Virus record (IMG/VR): IMGVR_UViG_2602041863_000006
Length of the DNA: 10,580 bases
Source: a virus
Lineage: Duplodnaviria; Heunggongvirae; Uroviricota; Caudoviricetes
Reading direction: 5' to 3' (one strand)
The position numbers and the translations under genes are program-made. The notes beneath the pieces are model-generated. The model searched no databases and was not told where the DNA came from. It was given only the letters and a program-made list of their open reading frames with translations. Below, piece by piece: positions 3,843 to 10,580 of this stretch; positions within the stretch are counted from its first letter, which is position 1, and the number at the start of each line of letters is the position of its first letter.

Positions 3843-3868
3843 CGCGCTTCGCTTGTCTGCTGCTTCGC

Positions 3869-3893
3869 CGGGGCATAAAAAATTTATGCCCCG
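3869..3893. other. Perfect inverted repeat (11-bp arms, 3-nt loop) 27 bp downstream of the portal stop; possible terminator or protein-binding palindrome
   Basis: CGGGGCATAAA-aaa-TTTATGCCCCG. No U-tract follows on either strand, so it is not a classic intrinsic terminator. Confidence 0.35.
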
Positions 3894-4316
3894 ACTCTCC
3901 AGCTCCTGTATCAATCAGATAATTTCACGACATCTTCCAGCTTATCGCCATCATCGACGATCAGGCTCTTACGCAATCCCACCGCGTTGACTGCATGTTC
4001 TTGCCGCCTCAGTGCGATTTTGACGGCCTTATCTGTCACCCCATCAAATCAAAAGCCCTCACGTCTTTTTCACGCTCAGTGTGAGAAATACAGCCATTCT
4101 GTTGTGTCGCTGCGACATCGTTCAGGGAATGCTATTTACCCCCTGAAACGCGGGCTGTTCCCCCGTCACCTGCGCGCAGAAAAAGTGCGTTTTTTTGTGC
4201 ACGCACGGATCCTTGACGGATCCAGCCGCCACGCGGGCCGGAAGGGCAAAAAGTCGTTCAAAATAATTGTGCAAATTTGTGCACTATCGTGCATGTAAAT
4301 TCATAAAAAAATTACA

Positions 4317-4339
4317 GAAAAAAGGCCGCTTTCGCGGCC
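4317..4339 (-). terminator. Rho-independent terminator for the ATPase-peptidase operon
   Basis: GGCCGC-tttc-GCGGCC hairpin (4324-4339) followed on the minus strand by a run of 7 T (complement of 4317-4323). It lies 8 bp past the peptidase stop (4347-4349). Confidence 0.6.
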
Positions 4340-4346
4340 ATAAAAA

Positions 4347-6551
4347 TTACGTGTCGAGAGAAATTTGTGTGCGCAGTTGAATAGGATTCAGAATTGTATA
4401 TCGCTGGCGAATAACATTATATAAATCAAAGTCTTTTACCCTTACGCTTATTACCATCGCATATTGCATATCAGGGGCTGAAACTCCCTTAACATGGCGC
4501 GAAGAATCTCGGGCATGATACCGTATATCAAAAACTGGATCGCTTAATAATGTATCAGCACTGAACTTTTTGCTTCTGTGCAAACAAGTTTCCCACTTAT
4601 GACCTTCACTCCTACACTCCCTTTCAGTCTTATACTGGCTTTTTTGACCAAAGAAATCATCTGTATCGGTATCGTCAAGGCCGAATCTTGGGCGGAAAGT
4701 TACCTGCATACCGGCCCTTGTATAGTTTACTGAATGTTCAGGATCTACTGGGGTTTGAATGCATAAAGTAGCGGTAAGCTCAAATGCTTCGTCAAAGGGA
4801 ACATCAGGGAATGGGATCGGTGCCCTTAAATATTTATTTTTTGCTAATGAACCATAGTAAATTACTGTAGCAGTATCATTTGGACAATCGATTAAAACGT
4901 TAGGATCCTCACTAAACCGTCCCCAACCGATATGTTCACGCGAATATTTTCTTGATGTTTCAGCATGATGAACAAGCAACGCTTTCAATGCAATGGTGTT
5001 CAATGGAGTTCCTGATAGAGCCGCAACTCCAGCGGCCGTTCTCAATGCTAATGGAGAGGCATAACTGGTTCCTTGAACTCCAACTATAGAACCAAGCAAA
5101 GGGTTGTAAGTGTAAAAAGGCTCGTCGTCGCTTCCACCAAAAATAACACCATCAGGTTTAACGAATCCGGGGCTTCTGCCTGGGCCAATACAGCTATATG
5201 GTGCCCGCCCCCATTTTTCACCGCTACGATCAGCAGCACCAATCGCTAGCGCGTTTACCATATCGGAAGGAGGTTGTATTCTCGCTGCATCACCGTCCTC
5301 ATTGCCATCATTCCCAACAGCAACAGTAAGTAATATCCCATGCTTAGCACAGATTTGGTCTAAAACAGCAGTCCATACATGAACCTCATCATCACCAATT
5401 GGAAGATGAGGACCAATACTTAGATTAGCGAACTTATAGTCACCACTATCAAGAACGGACTGTATTTTCTTAAGGACATCAAATAAATCCCAATTGCCAT
5501 TGTCACCTGATGTCGGTGAAAGAACTCTATAATGATCTACATTCATAAACGGTCTTTTAAAAGAAGGTGCATTTTCCTCGACACGTCCGAATAAGAAAGT
5601 GGATGTTACTTCATTACCGTGCTGCAATAATAATCCGCTTGTTTCTTTGGTGTCTGGATACACGTATTCCGTAACCCAATTACTCAAGTCAGCTGTCCCC
5701 AAGCCACCATCAAAAATGGCAATACGTTCGGATTCAAGAACAGCTTTAGAATTAGGGAGCTCCGGTGTAACTATATTAGATAACTTTCTGACAATGTTCG
5801 GCTGAGTACACCTGAGAGACGGCATCGGCCGCACAACGCGGATTAATGAAAAATCGAGTGTTTTTTTCATATCTTCAGGTCGCGCGTGTGCAACGATGAA
5901 AGTCAGTCCACCAACTTGGATTCTACTTTTGTAATCAACAGAGACACCATATTGTGCCGCATAGCTAATATAGGCTTTAACGATATCATCGTCTTCAACC
6001 CCAGCATGAAGAACCACTTCAAATTTTATCAAATCACTTTTCGCATGCTCAAAATTGCGTGCTCTCTCTTTTCCTTCAAAAAAGCTAACACTTTCAATTT
6101 CGATCAAATCCTTTTGTACGCCCTTCGGAGCTGTAGGGGAATTTAAAATTTCCTTAAATCTTATAACGGCATCATCATCACCGCTAACAAACAGTTGCGC
6201 CGTTACTAAGTCCTTATTCTGATCGCACTGACGTGCCGCTTTCCGTGGGCGAATGATTACCTGACGGCTACCGACATCCCGTAAACCTGTCGCTCTAAGT
6301 AATCCTTCCGGAAAGTAGCTTTTACCCAAAAACGCTGGGTGTAAAGTTAAATTGAATACACTCTCCCCCCTTGGCTTAGCCGCATCATCCAAACTGCGAA
6401 AGCGTGAGAGTAAAGTATCAATCTCTGGGTTTAAATGCTCCCTTACTTCTTCAAGAGTATAGGGATAGCGCTTACCATCCCTTCCTTTAGGCAAAGGTTC
6501 CTTTTTTGTCAGAACATGACCGTTACCTAAAAGTAAGTTCCTTTCCATCAT
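4347..6551 (-). CDS. ietS: Subtilisin-like (S8) serine peptidase, 734 aa, with a ~270-aa N-terminal region and ~200-aa C-terminal region of unknown function; candidate effector of an IetAS-like defence pair
   Basis: Catalytic triad motifs in subtilase order and spacing: Asp in IAIFDGGLG (D281), His in LLQHGNEVTS (H311), oxyanion Asn in AVGNDGN (N414), Ser in GTSYASPLAL (S496, codon complement of 5064-5066). The start ATG overlaps the upstream ATPase stop (ATGATG, 6546-6551) with GGGGG 8 nt upstream. AT-rich codon usage unlike the flanking phage genes. Gene symbol is from recall of the Gao et al. 2020 system and is unverified. Confidence 0.85.
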   Translation of the reverse strand: MMERNLLLGNGHVLTKKEPLPKGRDGKRYPYTLEEVREHLNPEIDTLLSRFRSLDDAAKPRGESVFNLTLHPAFLGKSYFPEGLLRATGLRDVGSRQVIIRPRKAARQCDQNKDLVTAQLFVSGDDDAVIRFKEILNSPTAPKGVQKDLIEIESVSFFEGKERARNFEHAKSDLIKFEVVLHAGVEDDDIVKAYISYAAQYGVSVDYKSRIQVGGLTFIVAHARPEDMKKTLDFSLIRVVRPMPSLRCTQPNIVRKLSNIVTPELPNSKAVLESERIAIFDGGLGTADLSNWVTEYVYPDTKETSGLLLQHGNEVTSTFLFGRVEENAPSFKRPFMNVDHYRVLSPTSGDNGNWDLFDVLKKIQSVLDSGDYKFANLSIGPHLPIGDDEVHVWTAVLDQICAKHGILLTVAVGNDGNEDGDAARIQPPSDMVNALAIGAADRSGEKWGRAPYSCIGPGRSPGFVKPDGVIFGGSDDEPFYTYNPLLGSIVGVQGTSYASPLALRTAAGVAALSGTPLNTIALKALLVHHAETSRKYSREHIGWGRFSEDPNVLIDCPNDTATVIYYGSLAKNKYLRAPIPFPDVPFDEAFELTATLCIQTPVDPEHSVNYTRAGMQVTFRPRFGLDDTDTDDFFGQKSQYKTERECRSEGHKWETCLHRSKKFSADTLLSDPVFDIRYHARDSSRHVKGVSAPDMQYAMVISVRVKDFDLYNVIRQRYTILNPIQLRTQISLDT

Positions 6552-7630
6552 TTAATCCCCCACTTTTGTAATTTATTCGCGATTGTTGGATGTGAAACAC
6601 CAACTAATTCAGCTATCTTCCTATTTGAAAAACCGTCAAAATGATATTTAATTATATTGAGATCATTATCGCTAAATTCATCCAATGAAACCCTCTCCGT
6701 AATTACGGCTTCTATTAATGAGCTTTCAAATGGAATATTTCTAAGTACCTCATTCTTTTTGGAGAAATTCAAAATACGGTTAATGATGGCAAAGGACATG
6801 CCATCTAATAATGGTGCAAGTTTTTTAGATAGTTCAGGTTCAATATTATGATTGACTAAATATCTATCTATCAGTTCTACTGATGGCATATTAAATTTAA
6901 GGATGTGCTCAAATCGACGCCAAACAGCCGGATCTAAGATATCAGGGTGATTAGTCGCAGCAACAAGAAGCGAGGTCGCTGGCCACTCATCTATGGTCTG
7001 TAGGAGTACAGTAACTAAACGTTTTAATTCTCCAACGTCCCTGTCATCATCACGTCTTTTTGCAACAGCATCAAATTCATCAAGCAAAAGGACACATGGT
7101 TTCTCTTTGGCATAATCCATAACGGATTTAATATTATTACCTGTTTTTCCCAAAAGAGAACTCATTACAGATGAGAGATCCAATGTTAAAAGAGGTAAAT
7201 TTAACTTTGCAGCAAGCCAATGTGCGGACATTGTTTTGCCTACGCCTGGCGGGCCAGAAAGTAAAACCGTCTTCACAGGTTCAAGACCAGCTTTGAACAA
7301 AGAAACAGCATTCTCTCTTTCGTTAACAATTGACTCCAGCTTCTTTGAGATATCCGTATTCCATACAGGTTCTTCAACAATTGCGTTGACAGATGTTTCC
7401 TGCAAAAGGTTTCGTCTGGAGTCTCCATCCACAGGCATAGGAGCCTTACTAGATGCCCCACGTAATACTGTTCCCTCAGCAATTAACGAAGCCAGCTTAG
7501 AAGCTAAAGCCTCATCATTTTTACGGATGTTGTTAATCATCTTTCTGCATAGGAGTGTAAATGCATTTGCGTTGCCTTTGATGCCTTGCTCGATGAGTTT
7601 GAAAAGTTCATCCTCCCTCACGTTTACCAT
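6548..7630 (-). CDS. ietA: AAA+ ATPase (classical AAA clade) with C-terminal helix-turn-helix; candidate ATPase partner of an IetAS-like defence pair
   Basis: Walker A GPPGVGKT (complement of 7232-7255), Walker B VLLLDEFD, sensor and Arg-rich segment (ATNHPDILDPAVWRRFE), C-terminal HTH-like NRKIAELVGVSHPTIANKLQK. Preferred start is the ATG at 7630 (MVNVRE...), which has GGGGG upstream; the ORF-track start at 7675 has no Shine-Dalgarno. Gene symbol is from recall and is unverified. Confidence 0.85.
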   Translation of the reverse strand: MVNVREDELFKLIEQGIKGNANAFTLLCRKMINNIRKNDEALASKLASLIAEGTVLRGASSKAPMPVDGDSRRNLLQETSVNAIVEEPVWNTDISKKLESIVNERENAVSLFKAGLEPVKTVLLSGPPGVGKTMSAHWLAAKLNLPLLTLDLSSVMSSLLGKTGNNIKSVMDYAKEKPCVLLLDEFDAVAKRRDDDRDVGELKRLVTVLLQTIDEWPATSLLVAATNHPDILDPAVWRRFEHILKFNMPSVELIDRYLVNHNIEPELSKKLAPLLDGMSFAIINRILNFSKKNEVLRNIPFESSLIEAVITERVSLDEFSDNDLNIIKYHFDGFSNRKIAELVGVSHPTIANKLQKWGIK

Positions 7631-7934
7631 AAAACCCCCAATAAAACATAAGCTTGTGTAAGCTGGTAACTGCATTGATGAAAATCAGTGCCTAATGTTA
7701 CCACTCTTGCTGGCGTTATTCAAAGAGTATCCTCACTTTTTTACTGTATGGATAATCAGCATAAAATCTATCCAGTTGGGTTACTCGAACATATTGTCAA
7801 TACTTGTTTCCAACGATTGATCAGTTCTACAGTTTTATCTCCTTCACTTGTGTTGGCAGCATGCTTATTCCTGAACCAGCTCGATTACTTGGCCATTTGA
7901 GAAAGATGTGTAGATCTTCTGATGGTTTGTATTG

Positions 7935-7965
7935 GAACGGGGTGCATAGTGATTTGCACCCCGTT
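7935..7965. other. GC-rich inverted repeat between parR and the AT-rich island; possible bidirectional terminator or boundary element
   Basis: AACGGGGTGCA-tagtgattt-TGCACCCCGTT, followed on the + strand by TCTTTATGTT. A second short palindrome CAGGGCG-aata-CGCCCTG at 7988-8005 sits just past the parR stop. Confidence 0.35.
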
Positions 7966-8008
7966 CTTTATGTTATGGGATTGGTGGCAGGGCGAATACG
8001 CCCTGATG

Positions 8009-8320
8009 TTATTCAGGAAATAACGCCCGGATATTTCCGGCCATCTGACTGGTTATCTGTGCGGTTGGTACTGGCTGTGACTCGGGGCGTTCTGTCCTGG
8101 TTTGTGTCACTGATAACGTCTCATCGTCAGCCCATGCAGCCAGTCGGTAAGCCTCTGCCGGATTCATTTTCAGAAGTGCCAGCCCGGCCAGAAAAGCCAC
8201 GCGTTGGCCGCTTTTGCGGGCTTCTGGTGTAAGGCTGTCCAGCCATGTGCATGCTTCGCCTTCGTTCTTGACGGCGGCGGGCTTCAGATAGAAACTTATC
8301 CGTCTGGTTGGTGTCGTCAT
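8009..8320 (-). CDS. parR: ParR-like small centromere-binding protein (103 aa)
   Basis: ATG at 8320..8318 preceded by AAGGAG; starts 4 nt after the parM stop, as in plasmid R1 parM-parR. Weak similarity to R1 ParR in the N-terminal part (RRISFYLKP...GLALL). The ORF-track start at 8455 overlaps parM and is rejected. Confidence 0.6.
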   Translation of the reverse strand: MTTPTRRISFYLKPAAVKNEGEACTWLDSLTPEARKSGQRVAFLAGLALLKMNPAEAYRLAAWADDETLSVTQTRTERPESQPVPTAQITSQMAGNIRALFPE

Positions 8321-8324
8321 TGGT

Positions 8325-9284
8325 TTACTCCTTGTCCATTGCGTACAGCCCATTAACCAGAGCAAACTGTGGCACTCCGTCCGCGATGAAAGTCGCATTA
8401 ACTCCGCAGGCTTCGCGGATAGCGGGTGCCACAATCTCCGCCCCTCCACCGACAACCATCACCCGCCCGTAACCCGAAAAAACCGCCAGCGCGCGGATCA
8501 CGCGTTGTTTCAGTGTTTCTTCCTTTTCACGAATAACCGCCATCAGGCTGTTGTAATGCGCGTCATTGTGGATGTGCCGGCGCAGCCAGGCTTCATCATG
8601 GCGATGTTCGATAATGGTATTGGCGATGTGGTGACTGGTACGCATACCGTTAGTGGCCATCACCGACAGTACGGCATCGGCCATCAGGGAAACGCCTACG
8701 TGTGGATCGCAAAACACCTGGCTGATACCTGCCAGTTGTCCCTGAACCTTTGCCACATCCAGCGTGGTTCCTCCTAAATCCACAATCAGCAGGGATTCAA
8801 ACGGACTCATGTCAGCCAGTGCTTTAAAGCCAGCCGGAATGGATTCAGGCATAACCCGCACGTTACGGATAGTGAATGCCTCACCGTTCTGGTACTCCAC
8901 CGGGCGCATAACGTTCGCTTTTTTGCGGTTGATGTTGGCCATGTCCGGCTGTGCGTTTGTGTCGAAATATTCGCTCAGTGGCAGGGTGACAACCACATCC
9001 ACCTCCTGTGGTGTGATGCCTGATTTGACCAGCGCGTGGTGAATGGCGATTACATTCACATCGCTGTACTGGTATTGCGTGTCGGTTGTCTGGACAAAGC
9101 GATCGCTGACCGGATCAAAACCATAGCGCACGCCATCAAGCATGTAGTTCGCAGGCTGCGAGCCGCCGAACGGCGCAGACCATTCCGACTTGAAGCTGTT
9201 CGGGCTGATGGCGTTGCGGCGTTCGCCGTTCTCAGTCCATGCCAGCTTGATGTTGGTGGAGCCGTCGTCGATACAAATTTTCAT
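8325..9284 (-). CDS. parM: ParM/StbA-like actin-type plasmid segregation ATPase (319 aa)
   Basis: N-terminus MKICIDDGSTNIKLAW...ISPNSFKSEW...YQYSDVNVIAIHHAL closely resembles plasmid R1 ParM (from recall). Size matches R1 ParM (~320 aa). AGGAAA Shine-Dalgarno 6 nt upstream of the ATG. Confidence 0.85.
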   Translation of the reverse strand: MKICIDDGSTNIKLAWTENGERRNAISPNSFKSEWSAPFGGSQPANYMLDGVRYGFDPVSDRFVQTTDTQYQYSDVNVIAIHHALVKSGITPQEVDVVVTLPLSEYFDTNAQPDMANINRKKANVMRPVEYQNGEAFTIRNVRVMPESIPAGFKALADMSPFESLLIVDLGGTTLDVAKVQGQLAGISQVFCDPHVGVSLMADAVLSVMATNGMRTSHHIANTIIEHRHDEAWLRRHIHNDAHYNSLMAVIREKEETLKQRVIRALAVFSGYGRVMVVGGGAEIVAPAIREACGVNATFIADGVPQFALVNGLYAMDKE

Positions 9285-9310
9285 GTCGATTTTCCTTATG
9301 TTGATTAATT

Positions 9311-9430
9311 AATCGTTTACGGGATTTTTAAATCCCGTTTTTGCCTGTTTTATGCTTGCTTCATATATCGCGGCGCGTTTTTTGCTCATTTACGGGTTTT
9401 GTGAATCCCGTTTCTGTCTGTTTTTTGTTT
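9311..9430. repeat. parC-like centromere and promoter region: two ~36-bp direct repeats 73 bp apart, each containing an ACGGG...CCCGT inverted repeat
   Basis: Repeat 1 TTTACGGGATTTTTAAATCCCGTTTTTGCCTGTTTT (around 9316-9351); repeat 2 TTTACGGGTTTTGTGAATCCCGTTTCTGTCTGTTTT (around 9388-9424). The perfect palindrome ACGGGATTT-tt-AAATCCCGT at 9319-9338 overlaps a plausible minus-strand promoter for parM (-35 TTTAAA, -10 TAATTA). Repeat 2 lies inside the 3' end of the upstream ORF. Confidence 0.5.
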
Positions 9431-10580
9431 CCACTGGTCAGGCCACCCCGCAGCAGGTCTGCTTTGCGGCGGGCGCGTTCAGTGGTTTCACTGATTCTCT
9501 GTGCGTGCTCTGCGTCGCGGATGGCGCGCAGCATGTCAGAAAGCACTGTAACGGGTGTTTTCATGGTGTTCTGGTCCTGCTGAAGTGTGGATGCCAGGCG
9601 TGCGGCGGCTTCGGGGTCTGATGTCCCGAGCTGTGCCAGATAGCTGGCGACCGGGTTATGGCGGATCTCCGTGCTGCTTACGCCGTGATTACGGCTCAAG
9701 TGCTGCCAGAGCTGCGTGATTCGGCTGTCCGGGCGGGTATCCGGTTTGCGTACAATTTCAAATCCCTGCGGTGCAATGATGCTGCCGTCGACGTACAGAC
9801 TGCCGCCCCGTAACAGGTGCTGCATCTGCTGTTCACCGATATGCAGGCCAAGGGATTCAGCAGACTCCCGCCATTCTTTAGCGAGTAACTCGTGGTTATC
9901 AGGCAAAGGCCGCGGCTGTTTGCGGCTCTGCGTCCAGTTCTGCATTTCATCACTGCTGTTTTTGGCCTGTTTGTCACGCAGCGAACGCATCAGCGCCCGG
10001 CGTTCGTGCCGTTTCAGTGAGCGCATCCATTCGTTCACTTCAACGCCGTCAGGGAGCTGCGGCCACGGTGTTGTCCGTTCTTCCGGCTGTTCTGTCCCGT
10101 TGTTGTCTGTTTCCTGTACACGGGGACAGTTATTGCCACGAGTCCAAGGGGCGGCAGGGCCGCCCTGAAGGTCAAAACCATTTTCGCGGGCGCTGTCTTC
10201 CGCTTCCTGTTTTCGTCTTACCAGCTTCCAGTTATCCGGATTCGTGCACACACGGGAGGATTCCCCGATGAGTGGCGACCAGATCCCGTAAATCTGTACG
10301 CCCTGTTCGCCGTAATCGTTCAGCTCATCTGCGAGGTCGTAGGCGGTGCGAATCAGGTAGTCTTTGCGTGGAACAAGTACGCCGCCCTGTTTCTCTATGT
10401 AGGTGGCAAAACATCCGGCATCAGCGGCAGCAAGAACCGCATCCATTGCGTCATCCTTCAGCCGTTGCGGGCCTTCGGGGTTGCGTGCCATCTGGCTGGC
10501 AAGGCGACGCAGTTCACGCCACACCTGACGGGAGGGGATACCAAAGAACTGGAACTGGCGGACCCGGTGAAGGCGCGCCC
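9361..10580 (-). CDS. Hypothetical protein, C-terminal ~406 codons (the 5' end is beyond the right window edge)
   Basis: The minus-strand frame is open from 10580 to the stop at 9361-9363; the ORF-track start at 10524 is an internal GTG. Contains a hydrophilic low-complexity linker (QEAEDSARENGFDLQGGPAAPWTRGNNCPRVQETDNNGTEQPEERTTPW). No motif I can name; function not assigned. Confidence 0.5.
   Translation of the reverse strand, partial: ARLHRVRQFQFFGIPSRQVWRELRRLASQMARNPEGPQRLKDDAMDAVLAAADAGCFATYIEKQGGVLVPRKDYLIRTAYDLADELNDYGEQGVQIYGIWSPLIGESSRVCTNPDNWKLVRRKQEAEDSARENGFDLQGGPAAPWTRGNNCPRVQETDNNGTEQPEERTTPWPQLPDGVEVNEWMRSLKRHERRALMRSLRDKQAKNSSDEMQNWTQSRKQPRPLPDNHELLAKEWRESAESLGLHIGEQQMQHLLRGGSLYVDGSIIAPQGFEIVRKPDTRPDSRITQLWQHLSRNHGVSSTEIRHNPVASYLAQLGTSDPEAAARLASTLQQDQNTMKTPVTVLSDMLRAIRDAEHAQRISETTERARRKADLLRGGLTSGNKKQTETGFTKPVNEQKTRRDI

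Follow-up and report, generated by a model that had tools for sequence, protein, structure and literature searches.

A predicted type II partition cassette abuts the replication gene of P88-like prophages

Introduction

In the parMRC (parA/stb) locus of the IncFII plasmids R1 and R100, centromere sites, parM and parR follow one another in this order. A cassette with the same order of candidate sites, parM and parR, and with the same two protein families, occurs in a 10,580-nucleotide stretch of viral DNA (IMG/VR record IMGVR_UViG_2602041863_000006, hereafter the window), beside the replication endonuclease gene (gpA) of a P2-like phage. The R1/R100 locus is found on a plasmid, whereas the phage cassette is part of an integrating prophage. 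In the N-terminal domain, the R1/R100 and phage ParR proteins are ~32% identical, and both end in an equivalent C-terminal tail, N-[AI]-x-x-[LM]-[FI]; however, the phage ParR comprises 103 amino acids (aa) compared to 117 aa for its plasmid counterpart, and is without the middle helical segment. The candidate centromere of the phage cassette also differs from that of R1/R100: in the plasmids, a clear promoter lies between two blocks of direct iterons of 11 bp, while the phage locus displays two 20-bp palindromes located 73 bp apart and no consensus promoter.

The best functional analogy is provided by the CGP3 prophage of Corynebacterium glutamicum, likewise an integrated prophage with an actin-like filament former and an adaptor acting on upstream sites. 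The actin-like AlpC is co-transcribed with the adaptor AlpA, which binds sites upstream of the operon (alpS); the system is induced early, and the excised circular phage DNA depends on it to replicate efficiently (PMC4446434; see also PMC5539076). The analogy spans a different host phylum and a different phage type, and AlpC is described only as actin-like, whereas the cassette considered here is known from sequence alone. A second phage example is D6, which has a StbA-type partition system with a ParM homologue (47.8% identity). D6 is one of the P1-like phages, whose prophages are plasmids, and has a genome of 91 kb; in contrast, the P88-like elements described below are ~35 kb, integrating and P2-like.

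The existence of the cassette in P2-like phages is already known. Approximately a quarter of P2-like phages were reported to carry a putative partition system (Rousset et al. 2022; PMC9122126), located in the interval between gpA and gpQ that defines the P2 defence hotspot. The paper describing phage phiSM gives the ParR-like gene only as a 'fitness' factor, and NCBI annotation already names both genes. We add to this that the linkage to gpA is fixed in at least five genera, that the cassette falls on that side of the hotspot boundary which is conserved, and that ParM is under strong constraint. We also describe a candidate two-site centromere with a layout unlike plasmid iteron arrays, and the apparent swapping of ParR alleles.

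Results

Identity of the cassette proteins

The original prediction, made from the window alone, had described a ParM-like ATPase, a ParR-like protein 4 nt downstream and upstream repeats with internal palindromes as a type II partition cassette, in a P2-like context beside defence genes. All of these elements are present at the predicted positions on the minus strand (Table 1), and Pfam matches, the alignment with R1 ParM and a PADLOC assignment of the neighbouring genes bear out both the type of the cassette and its setting. ParM matches PF06406 (StbA_N, 2e-82) and PF21523 (ParM C-terminal domain, 8e-69), and can be aligned over its full length (residues 2–316) with the R1 ParM structures (PDB 1mwk, E 2.3e-92). 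The phosphate-1, phosphate-2 and adenosine motifs (DDGSTNIK, MPESIPAG, DLGGTTLD and GGGAE) are kept in this alignment, and identity to the IncF StbA/ParM is 46.2%. The ATPase that characterises a type II system, a ParM/StbA protein with intact nucleotide-binding motifs, is present. We assign ParM as a full-length homologue of R1 ParM.

ParR is likewise assigned to the StbB/ParR family, with a match to PF10784 (Plasmid_stab_B, 1.4e-24). A single-sequence search of the PDB with ParR gave nothing significant; a profile built from 21 homologues detected the pB171 ParR/StbB (2JD3) with an E-value of 0.0024 over residues 9–74. The AlphaFold2 monomer model based on a 21-sequence alignment was too poor for use (predicted local distance difference test score 55.6), and the fold was not confirmed in this way. 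NCBIfam contains no above-threshold match for ParM, ParR or gpA. Alignments reveal the plan of ParR: an N-terminal segment in which R6 to P14 are invariant is followed by helices up to approximately residue 64, a hypervariable linker (65–95) and a conserved C-terminal tail. Residues N96, I97, F101 and P102 of the tail are invariant in both of the parR allele classes described below, and the tail aligns with the ETRxNAxxMF motif of plasmid ParR proteins. In R1, this tail is the part of ParR that contacts ParM. The second component of a type II system, a small ParR encoded directly downstream, is thus present, with a predicted N-terminal ribbon-helix-helix DNA-binding domain and a ParM-binding-type C-terminal tail.

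Both genes have a good Shine-Dalgarno sequence, with AAGGA located 8 nt 5' of the parM start and AAGGAG preceding parR. The parM stop and the parR start are separated by exactly 4 nt (8321–8324). A 148-aa open reading frame at 8009–8455 corresponds to the parR frame, prolonged to a TTG codon further upstream.

Table 1 Features of the locus, numbered by position in the window.
Feature	Position	Strand	Description
parR	8009–8320	minus	103 aa; ATG at 8320, stop at 8009; ParR/StbB-family adaptor
parM	8325–9284	minus	319 aa; ATG start; actin-like segregation ATPase of the ParM/StbA family
Proximal parC-like repeat	9313–9357		Palindrome 9319–9338 (ACGGGATTTTTAAATCCCGT), with its centre at -44 relative to the parM ATG; candidate binding site for ParR and candidate operator
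Distal parC-like repeat	9386–9430		Degenerate palindrome 9392–9411, within the final gpA codons
gpA, 3' part	9361–10580	minus	Replication endonuclease; 946 aa when whole, truncated at the edge of the window; 100% identical to the protein annotated as such in NZ_CP103762
Variable hotspot cargo	4301–8008		Between the portal-side flank (3843–4300) and the parR stop
IetA	6548–7675	minus	AAA ATPase with C-terminal helix-turn-helix, 375 aa; PADLOC 2.9e-89
IetS	4347–6551	minus	S8 peptidase, 734 aa; PADLOC 5.7e-41

Linkage of the cassette to gpA

The window is 100% identical to a prophage adjoining pdxB in the Escherichia coli chromosome NZ_CP103762. This prophage reads, in order, integrase, C and Cox regulators, a 946-aa gpA, parM, parR, AAA ATPase, S8 peptidase, portal, terminase and a P2-type late region. 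The region 7900–9500 is 94–97% identical to P88, phiSM, P884B11 and others (Xuanwuvirus, Peduoviridae), the portal and terminase proteins are 100% and 99.5% identical to those of P88, and the gene order int-C-cox...A-parM-parR-cargo-Q-P-O is common to the window prophage and P88. By these comparisons we classify the window as part of a P88-like (Xuanwuvirus, Peduoviridae) prophage.

The cassette was found in 1308 of 5426 complete E. coli genomes (~24%), with 1454 copies located on the chromosome and 2 on plasmids. By tblastn, phage-borne ParM proteins are at least 94.7% identical among themselves, while the best plasmid ParM among >5000 plasmid records reaches 52.6%, a maximum that leaves out six plasmid records bearing the prophage cassette itself (95–99%). 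Among 50,697 phage records, the only ParM match outside the genus is that of D6. ParM proteins of E. coli, Salmonella and E. albertii prophages are 97–99% identical to that of the window. Sequences of intermediate identity were traced to contigs and lie in P2-like prophages of Hafnia (62%), Plesiomonas (62%), Serratia (58%) and Enterobacter ludwigii (54%). The order gpA-parM-parR is therefore shared by P2-like prophages of E. coli, Salmonella, E. albertii, Hafnia, Plesiomonas, Serratia and Enterobacter; in the latter four, one or two small genes sometimes follow gpA, and parR is followed by variable genes and the portal gene. An integrase is visible in the Hafnia, Plesiomonas and Serratia loci, the Enterobacter locus being cut off before that position.

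In contrast, ParM loci at 52.6% identity or below belong to plasmids, an integrated plasmid or an integrative and conjugative element, and are devoid of gpA and portal. In a neighbour-joining tree, the gpA-linked ParM proteins form a single clade of 25 out of 130 sequences, with no known sequence from a plasmid or an integrative and conjugative element inside. In an E. albertii prophage (L010), gpA and parM form a block with identities of 94% and 99%, joined to late genes for which identity is only 30–35%; the cassette therefore travels with the replication module. The closest relatives of the window ParM are thus prophage-borne, a comparison the original prediction had proposed. Its suggestion of a mosaic junction with plasmid DNA is contradicted by the distance to plasmid ParM proteins, by the phage genes on either flank and by the ParM proteins of 54–62% identity occupying the same gpA-parM-parR position in four other genera. 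Taken as a whole, the comparison presents the cassette as what appears to be a long-established part of the phage backbone, within the replication region.

Position relative to the defence hotspot

In P2, the gpA-to-portal interval that houses parMR here is occupied by the hotspot systems, namely tin, old and systems of defence (Rousset et al. 2022). Unlike these, parMR is invariant in P88-like phages and always abuts gpA, and the variable cargo starts at the parR stop. The 160 nt upstream of parM, which include the end of gpA, are in register in 83 out of 85 related loci; the 1.5 kb beyond the parR stop, by comparison, fall into 28 unrelated clusters among 73 loci. In the window, homology to other P88-like phages ends at ~4300 and returns at 7891–8009. 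The intervening cargo of this prophage is IetA and IetS, a complete IetAS defence pair. We conclude from these alignments that parMR is the apparent conserved edge of the hotspot, the variable part beginning after the parR stop. The proposal that the cassette had been co-opted as hotspot cargo does not agree with this arrangement: the gpA-parM junction is constant, and it is the cargo downstream that varies. In P88-like phages, the boundary of the P2 defence hotspot would thus be the parR stop as opposed to gpA; because of this, hotspot-mining pipelines that take all of gpA-gpQ as cargo keep scoring parMR as cargo.

Selection and parR alleles

We determined the ratio of non-synonymous to synonymous substitutions (dN/dS, pairwise Nei-Gojobori method, 5–6 phages) for four genes. 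It was found that parM is the most constrained (0.061), followed by the terminase gene (0.096), the gpA C-terminus (0.16) and parR (0.31). ParM is intact in all 87 of the related loci sampled. Databases also contain clusters of truncated ParM (P0006, P0009 and P0017, of 261, 229 and 188 aa respectively) with hundreds of members each, some on megabase contigs. These suggest that, in a small share of prophages, parM has repeatedly become a pseudogene or its start or end has been called differently.

Diversity is far greater in parR than in parM. Among loci with a ParM 97–99% identical to that of the window, two parR allele classes are seen: identity to the window ParR is at least 85% in 66 loci, and 50–57% in 15 loci (L010 and L032–L111 are among the loci compared). 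Both classes share the N-terminal DNA-binding strand, the C-terminal tail and the palindromes. Megablast homology breakpoints are located inside parR, at ~8266 (approximately codon 18), and the alignments indicate that ParR alleles are swapped by recombination within the gene.

Candidate centromere and transcription signals

There are two direct repeats, each 45 nt long, which share 82% identity and begin 73 nt from one another; both contain a 20-nt palindrome of the type ACGGGAT-N6-ATCCCGT. The repeats had been described as lying upstream; they are indeed present and palindromic, but the distal repeat is not intergenic, being located inside the last codons of gpA (stop at 9361–9363). The likeness to plasmid R1 drawn at the same time applies to both proteins but not to the candidate centromere, which comprises two palindromes and not 11-bp iteron arrays. 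In the plasmid relatives, including an IncF (IncFIA/IncFIC) plasmid with a StbA nearly identical to R1 ParM, a promoter can be recognised and has arrays of direct iterons, ~11 bp each, on either side. Most relatives contain a better distal palindrome, ACGGGATTCACAAATCCCGT.

When allowing for at most one mismatch, CGGGAT-N6-ATCCCG occurs in the window at the two cassette sites only, and the same is true for the palindrome in the whole 35.8-kb P88 genome; with up to two mismatches, the window contains 3 matches compared to 0.33 expected. The arrangement of the sites is retained across genera. In E. coli, Hafnia and Plesiomonas, respectively, the centres of the two sites are 73, 73 and 72 bp apart and the centre of the proximal one lies at -44, -47 and -52 relative to the parM ATG; in all three, the distal site is located within the 3' end of the upstream open reading frame. 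In contrast, the site sequences vary by genus, from GGGAT..ATCCC in E. coli to GGGAT..AACCC in Hafnia and GGGAC..AACCC in Plesiomonas. Geometry that is kept while sequence diverges is expected of sites co-evolving with the protein that binds them, and it is mainly for this reason that we consider the palindromes candidate ParR sites. We infer that ParR would bind to both, with the proximal palindrome probably also serving as an operator. A caveat to a two-site arrangement is provided by the Serratia and Enterobacter branch, where a different set of inverted and direct repeats is found. A comparison of ParR allele class with palindrome sequence revealed no co-variation.

No consensus sigma-70 promoter could be detected upstream of parM. 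The gap between gpA and parM, which are encoded on the same strand, is 76 nt, and no terminator-like site was found between the two genes on the minus (coding) strand. Hence, read-through from the early operon is the simplest expectation. A primary role of the repeats as intrinsic terminators was considered and rejected, as the proximal repeat is terminator-like only on the plus strand, antisense to parM, where there is no gene to terminate; the distal repeat folds weakly (z -1.2).

Discussion

We propose, with moderate confidence, that the cassette is a functional type II segregation module belonging to the replication (early) module of an integrating P2-like phage lineage, as opposed to plasmid debris or swappable cargo. 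Because parMR comes immediately after the rolling-circle gpA in the same orientation, and no terminator is evident in between, the proteins would be made together with gpA when, following infection or induction, the phage genome replicates as an extrachromosomal circle. ParR dimers would then bind the two palindromes that straddle the gpA end and the parM leader, with the proximal site probably doubling as operator. ATP-bound ParM filaments may capture the ParR-DNA complexes via the ParR C-terminal tail and push sister phage circles apart. The resulting spatial distribution of replicating genomes could make replication or packaging more efficient, as for AlpC/AlpA of CGP3, and/or ensure that copies reach both daughter cells during transient episomal phases, short of long-term plasmid carriage. 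We favour such positioning of replicating phage circles over stable carriage as a plasmid.

Several observations weigh against this proposal. The monophyly of the phage ParM proteins has a neighbour-joining bootstrap of only 62%. Within the E. coli clade, the palindrome arms (pi 0.075) are no more conserved than the flanking non-coding DNA (pi 0.05), so that only the cross-genus architecture supports the sites. R1 parC has 10 iterons, far more than the two sites seen here, which may constitute an operator only. Furthermore, the gain from partition during a short lytic cycle is not obvious, the timing of expression is deduced from gene order alone, and a literature search on the cassette yielded annotation-level mentions but no functional study.

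The alternative that survives best, although we consider it unlikely, is that P88-like phages are facultative phage-plasmids, stably inherited as low-copy circular episomes with ParMRC and a hok/gef killer preventing their loss. The phage-plasmid idea has been suggested before (Rousset et al. 2022; PMC9122126), and a 34,461-bp circular record labelled plasmid from the cat E. coli isolate Z1323PEC0009 (NZ_CP148288.1; L029/L030) corresponds to a whole P88-like genome including the integrase. Over 10 kb, the phage in this record shows 100% identity to a prophage in the chromosome of the human isolate Z1323HEC0067, which bears the same 'Z1323' name prefix. A Hok/Gef-family toxin gene is located near ogr in P88-like genomes, outside the window (34928–35068 in P88, L002; 1291–1431 in L030), and the StbA-type ParM of the phage-plasmid D6 adds to the parallel. 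Both of the classical stability loci of R1, parMRC and hok/sok, thus have homologues in P88-like phages.

A phage-plasmid is extrachromosomal, has a plasmid-type replicon and is independent of integration. In complete E. coli genomes, however, 1454 out of 1456 places are chromosomal, and the integrase lies beside the C/Cox switch in every lineage where the region is covered. The rolling-circle gpA is the only replication initiator found, with no theta replicon or copy-control genes seen; in the P2 family, gpA is part of a repressible early lytic operon. An intact attP junction inside a record was found in no complete E. coli genome, records that start at the junction not being scorable in this manner. 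The phage-sized NZ_CP148288.1 is the single circular plasmid record of its kind that was found, and could represent excised, replicating phage DNA picked up by the assembler. The persistence as a plasmid that the original prediction had offered, and for which it had proposed a search for an initiator, thus does not fit well. We regard a dual lifestyle as more doubtful still, with P88-like phages existing also as circular episomes that are partitioned by ParMRC and protected by hok/gef over many generations, for example when attB is occupied or absent. If true, approximately a quarter of the P2-like prophages in E. coli would be facultative phage-plasmids, and a phage replicon of the rolling-circle type would be able to persist at low copy number; episomal carriage would require the lifestyle of a very common prophage family to be revised.

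It is improbable that the cassette is accessory cargo of the hotspot that acts from the repressed prophage, either at the level of the host or in competition, for example by interfering with plasmids or with rival phages. Its location between gpA and gpQ, its occurrence in only around a quarter of P2-like phages (PMC9122126) and its direct contact with IetAS in this prophage would agree with such a role. However, PADLOC has no model matching ParM or ParR, whereas IetA and IetS match strongly, and the position abutting gpA is fixed where the genes after parR are not. The cassette is kept across five genera with its cognate cis sites, and the palindromes do not resemble the iterons of IncF parC, which are of the AAACCC type, so that cross-reaction with F-like plasmids is unlikely.

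There is very little to recommend the view that ParR acts mainly as a transcription factor, with the palindromes as operators tuning the end of the early operon and segregation being vestigial. The number of sites is only two, one of these lies over the likely parM promoter/leader, and R1 ParR autoregulates its operon; yet parM is the most constrained of the genes measured, and residues N96, I97, F101 and P102 of the ParR tail are invariant in both allele classes. Least credible is a non-functional relic of an old plasmid-phage recombination, for which the truncated ParM clusters could be cited: strong purifying selection on parM and the intact ParM in all sampled loci exclude a decaying relic, and the cassette is kept in the inducible, plaque-forming phages P88 and phiSM.

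If the module does position replicating phage DNA, the cassette would represent a Gram-negative, genetically tractable counterpart of CGP3 AlpAC, and an example of plasmid segregation machines being reused by viruses for genome positioning.

Neighbouring features

The gpA proteins of relatives match PF05840 (Phage_GPA). The C-terminal 387 aa of gpA have no Pfam match, and the whole protein has no NCBIfam match. Prophages of other genera encode a gpA of 785–907 aa; the window gpA (L001, 21462–24302) has a C-terminal extension that ends in the distal repeat.

On the portal side, the hotspot is bounded by ~450 nt following the portal gene (3843–4300) that are 93–96% conserved in P88-like phages. 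By analogy with P2, this segment presumably contains cos; a P2 cos sequence has no match in the window. On the parR side, the segment 7891–8000 is 90% identical to the phiSM DNA in which 'memP', a plus-strand gene of this phage, has its 3' end. The segment contains a hairpin (7934–7967) with a 13-bp stem (-25 kcal/mol, z -5) and a T-rich tail on the plus strand only, and looks like the terminator remnant of an older cargo, left beside parR when IetAS came in.

A 226-kb contig labelled 'Vagococcus sp. WN89Y' (NZ_JBQPOM010000071.1, L011) contains this enterobacterial prophage at 92–99.7% amino-acid identity, and this assembly, ascribed to a Gram-positive genus, is probably contaminated or mislabelled.

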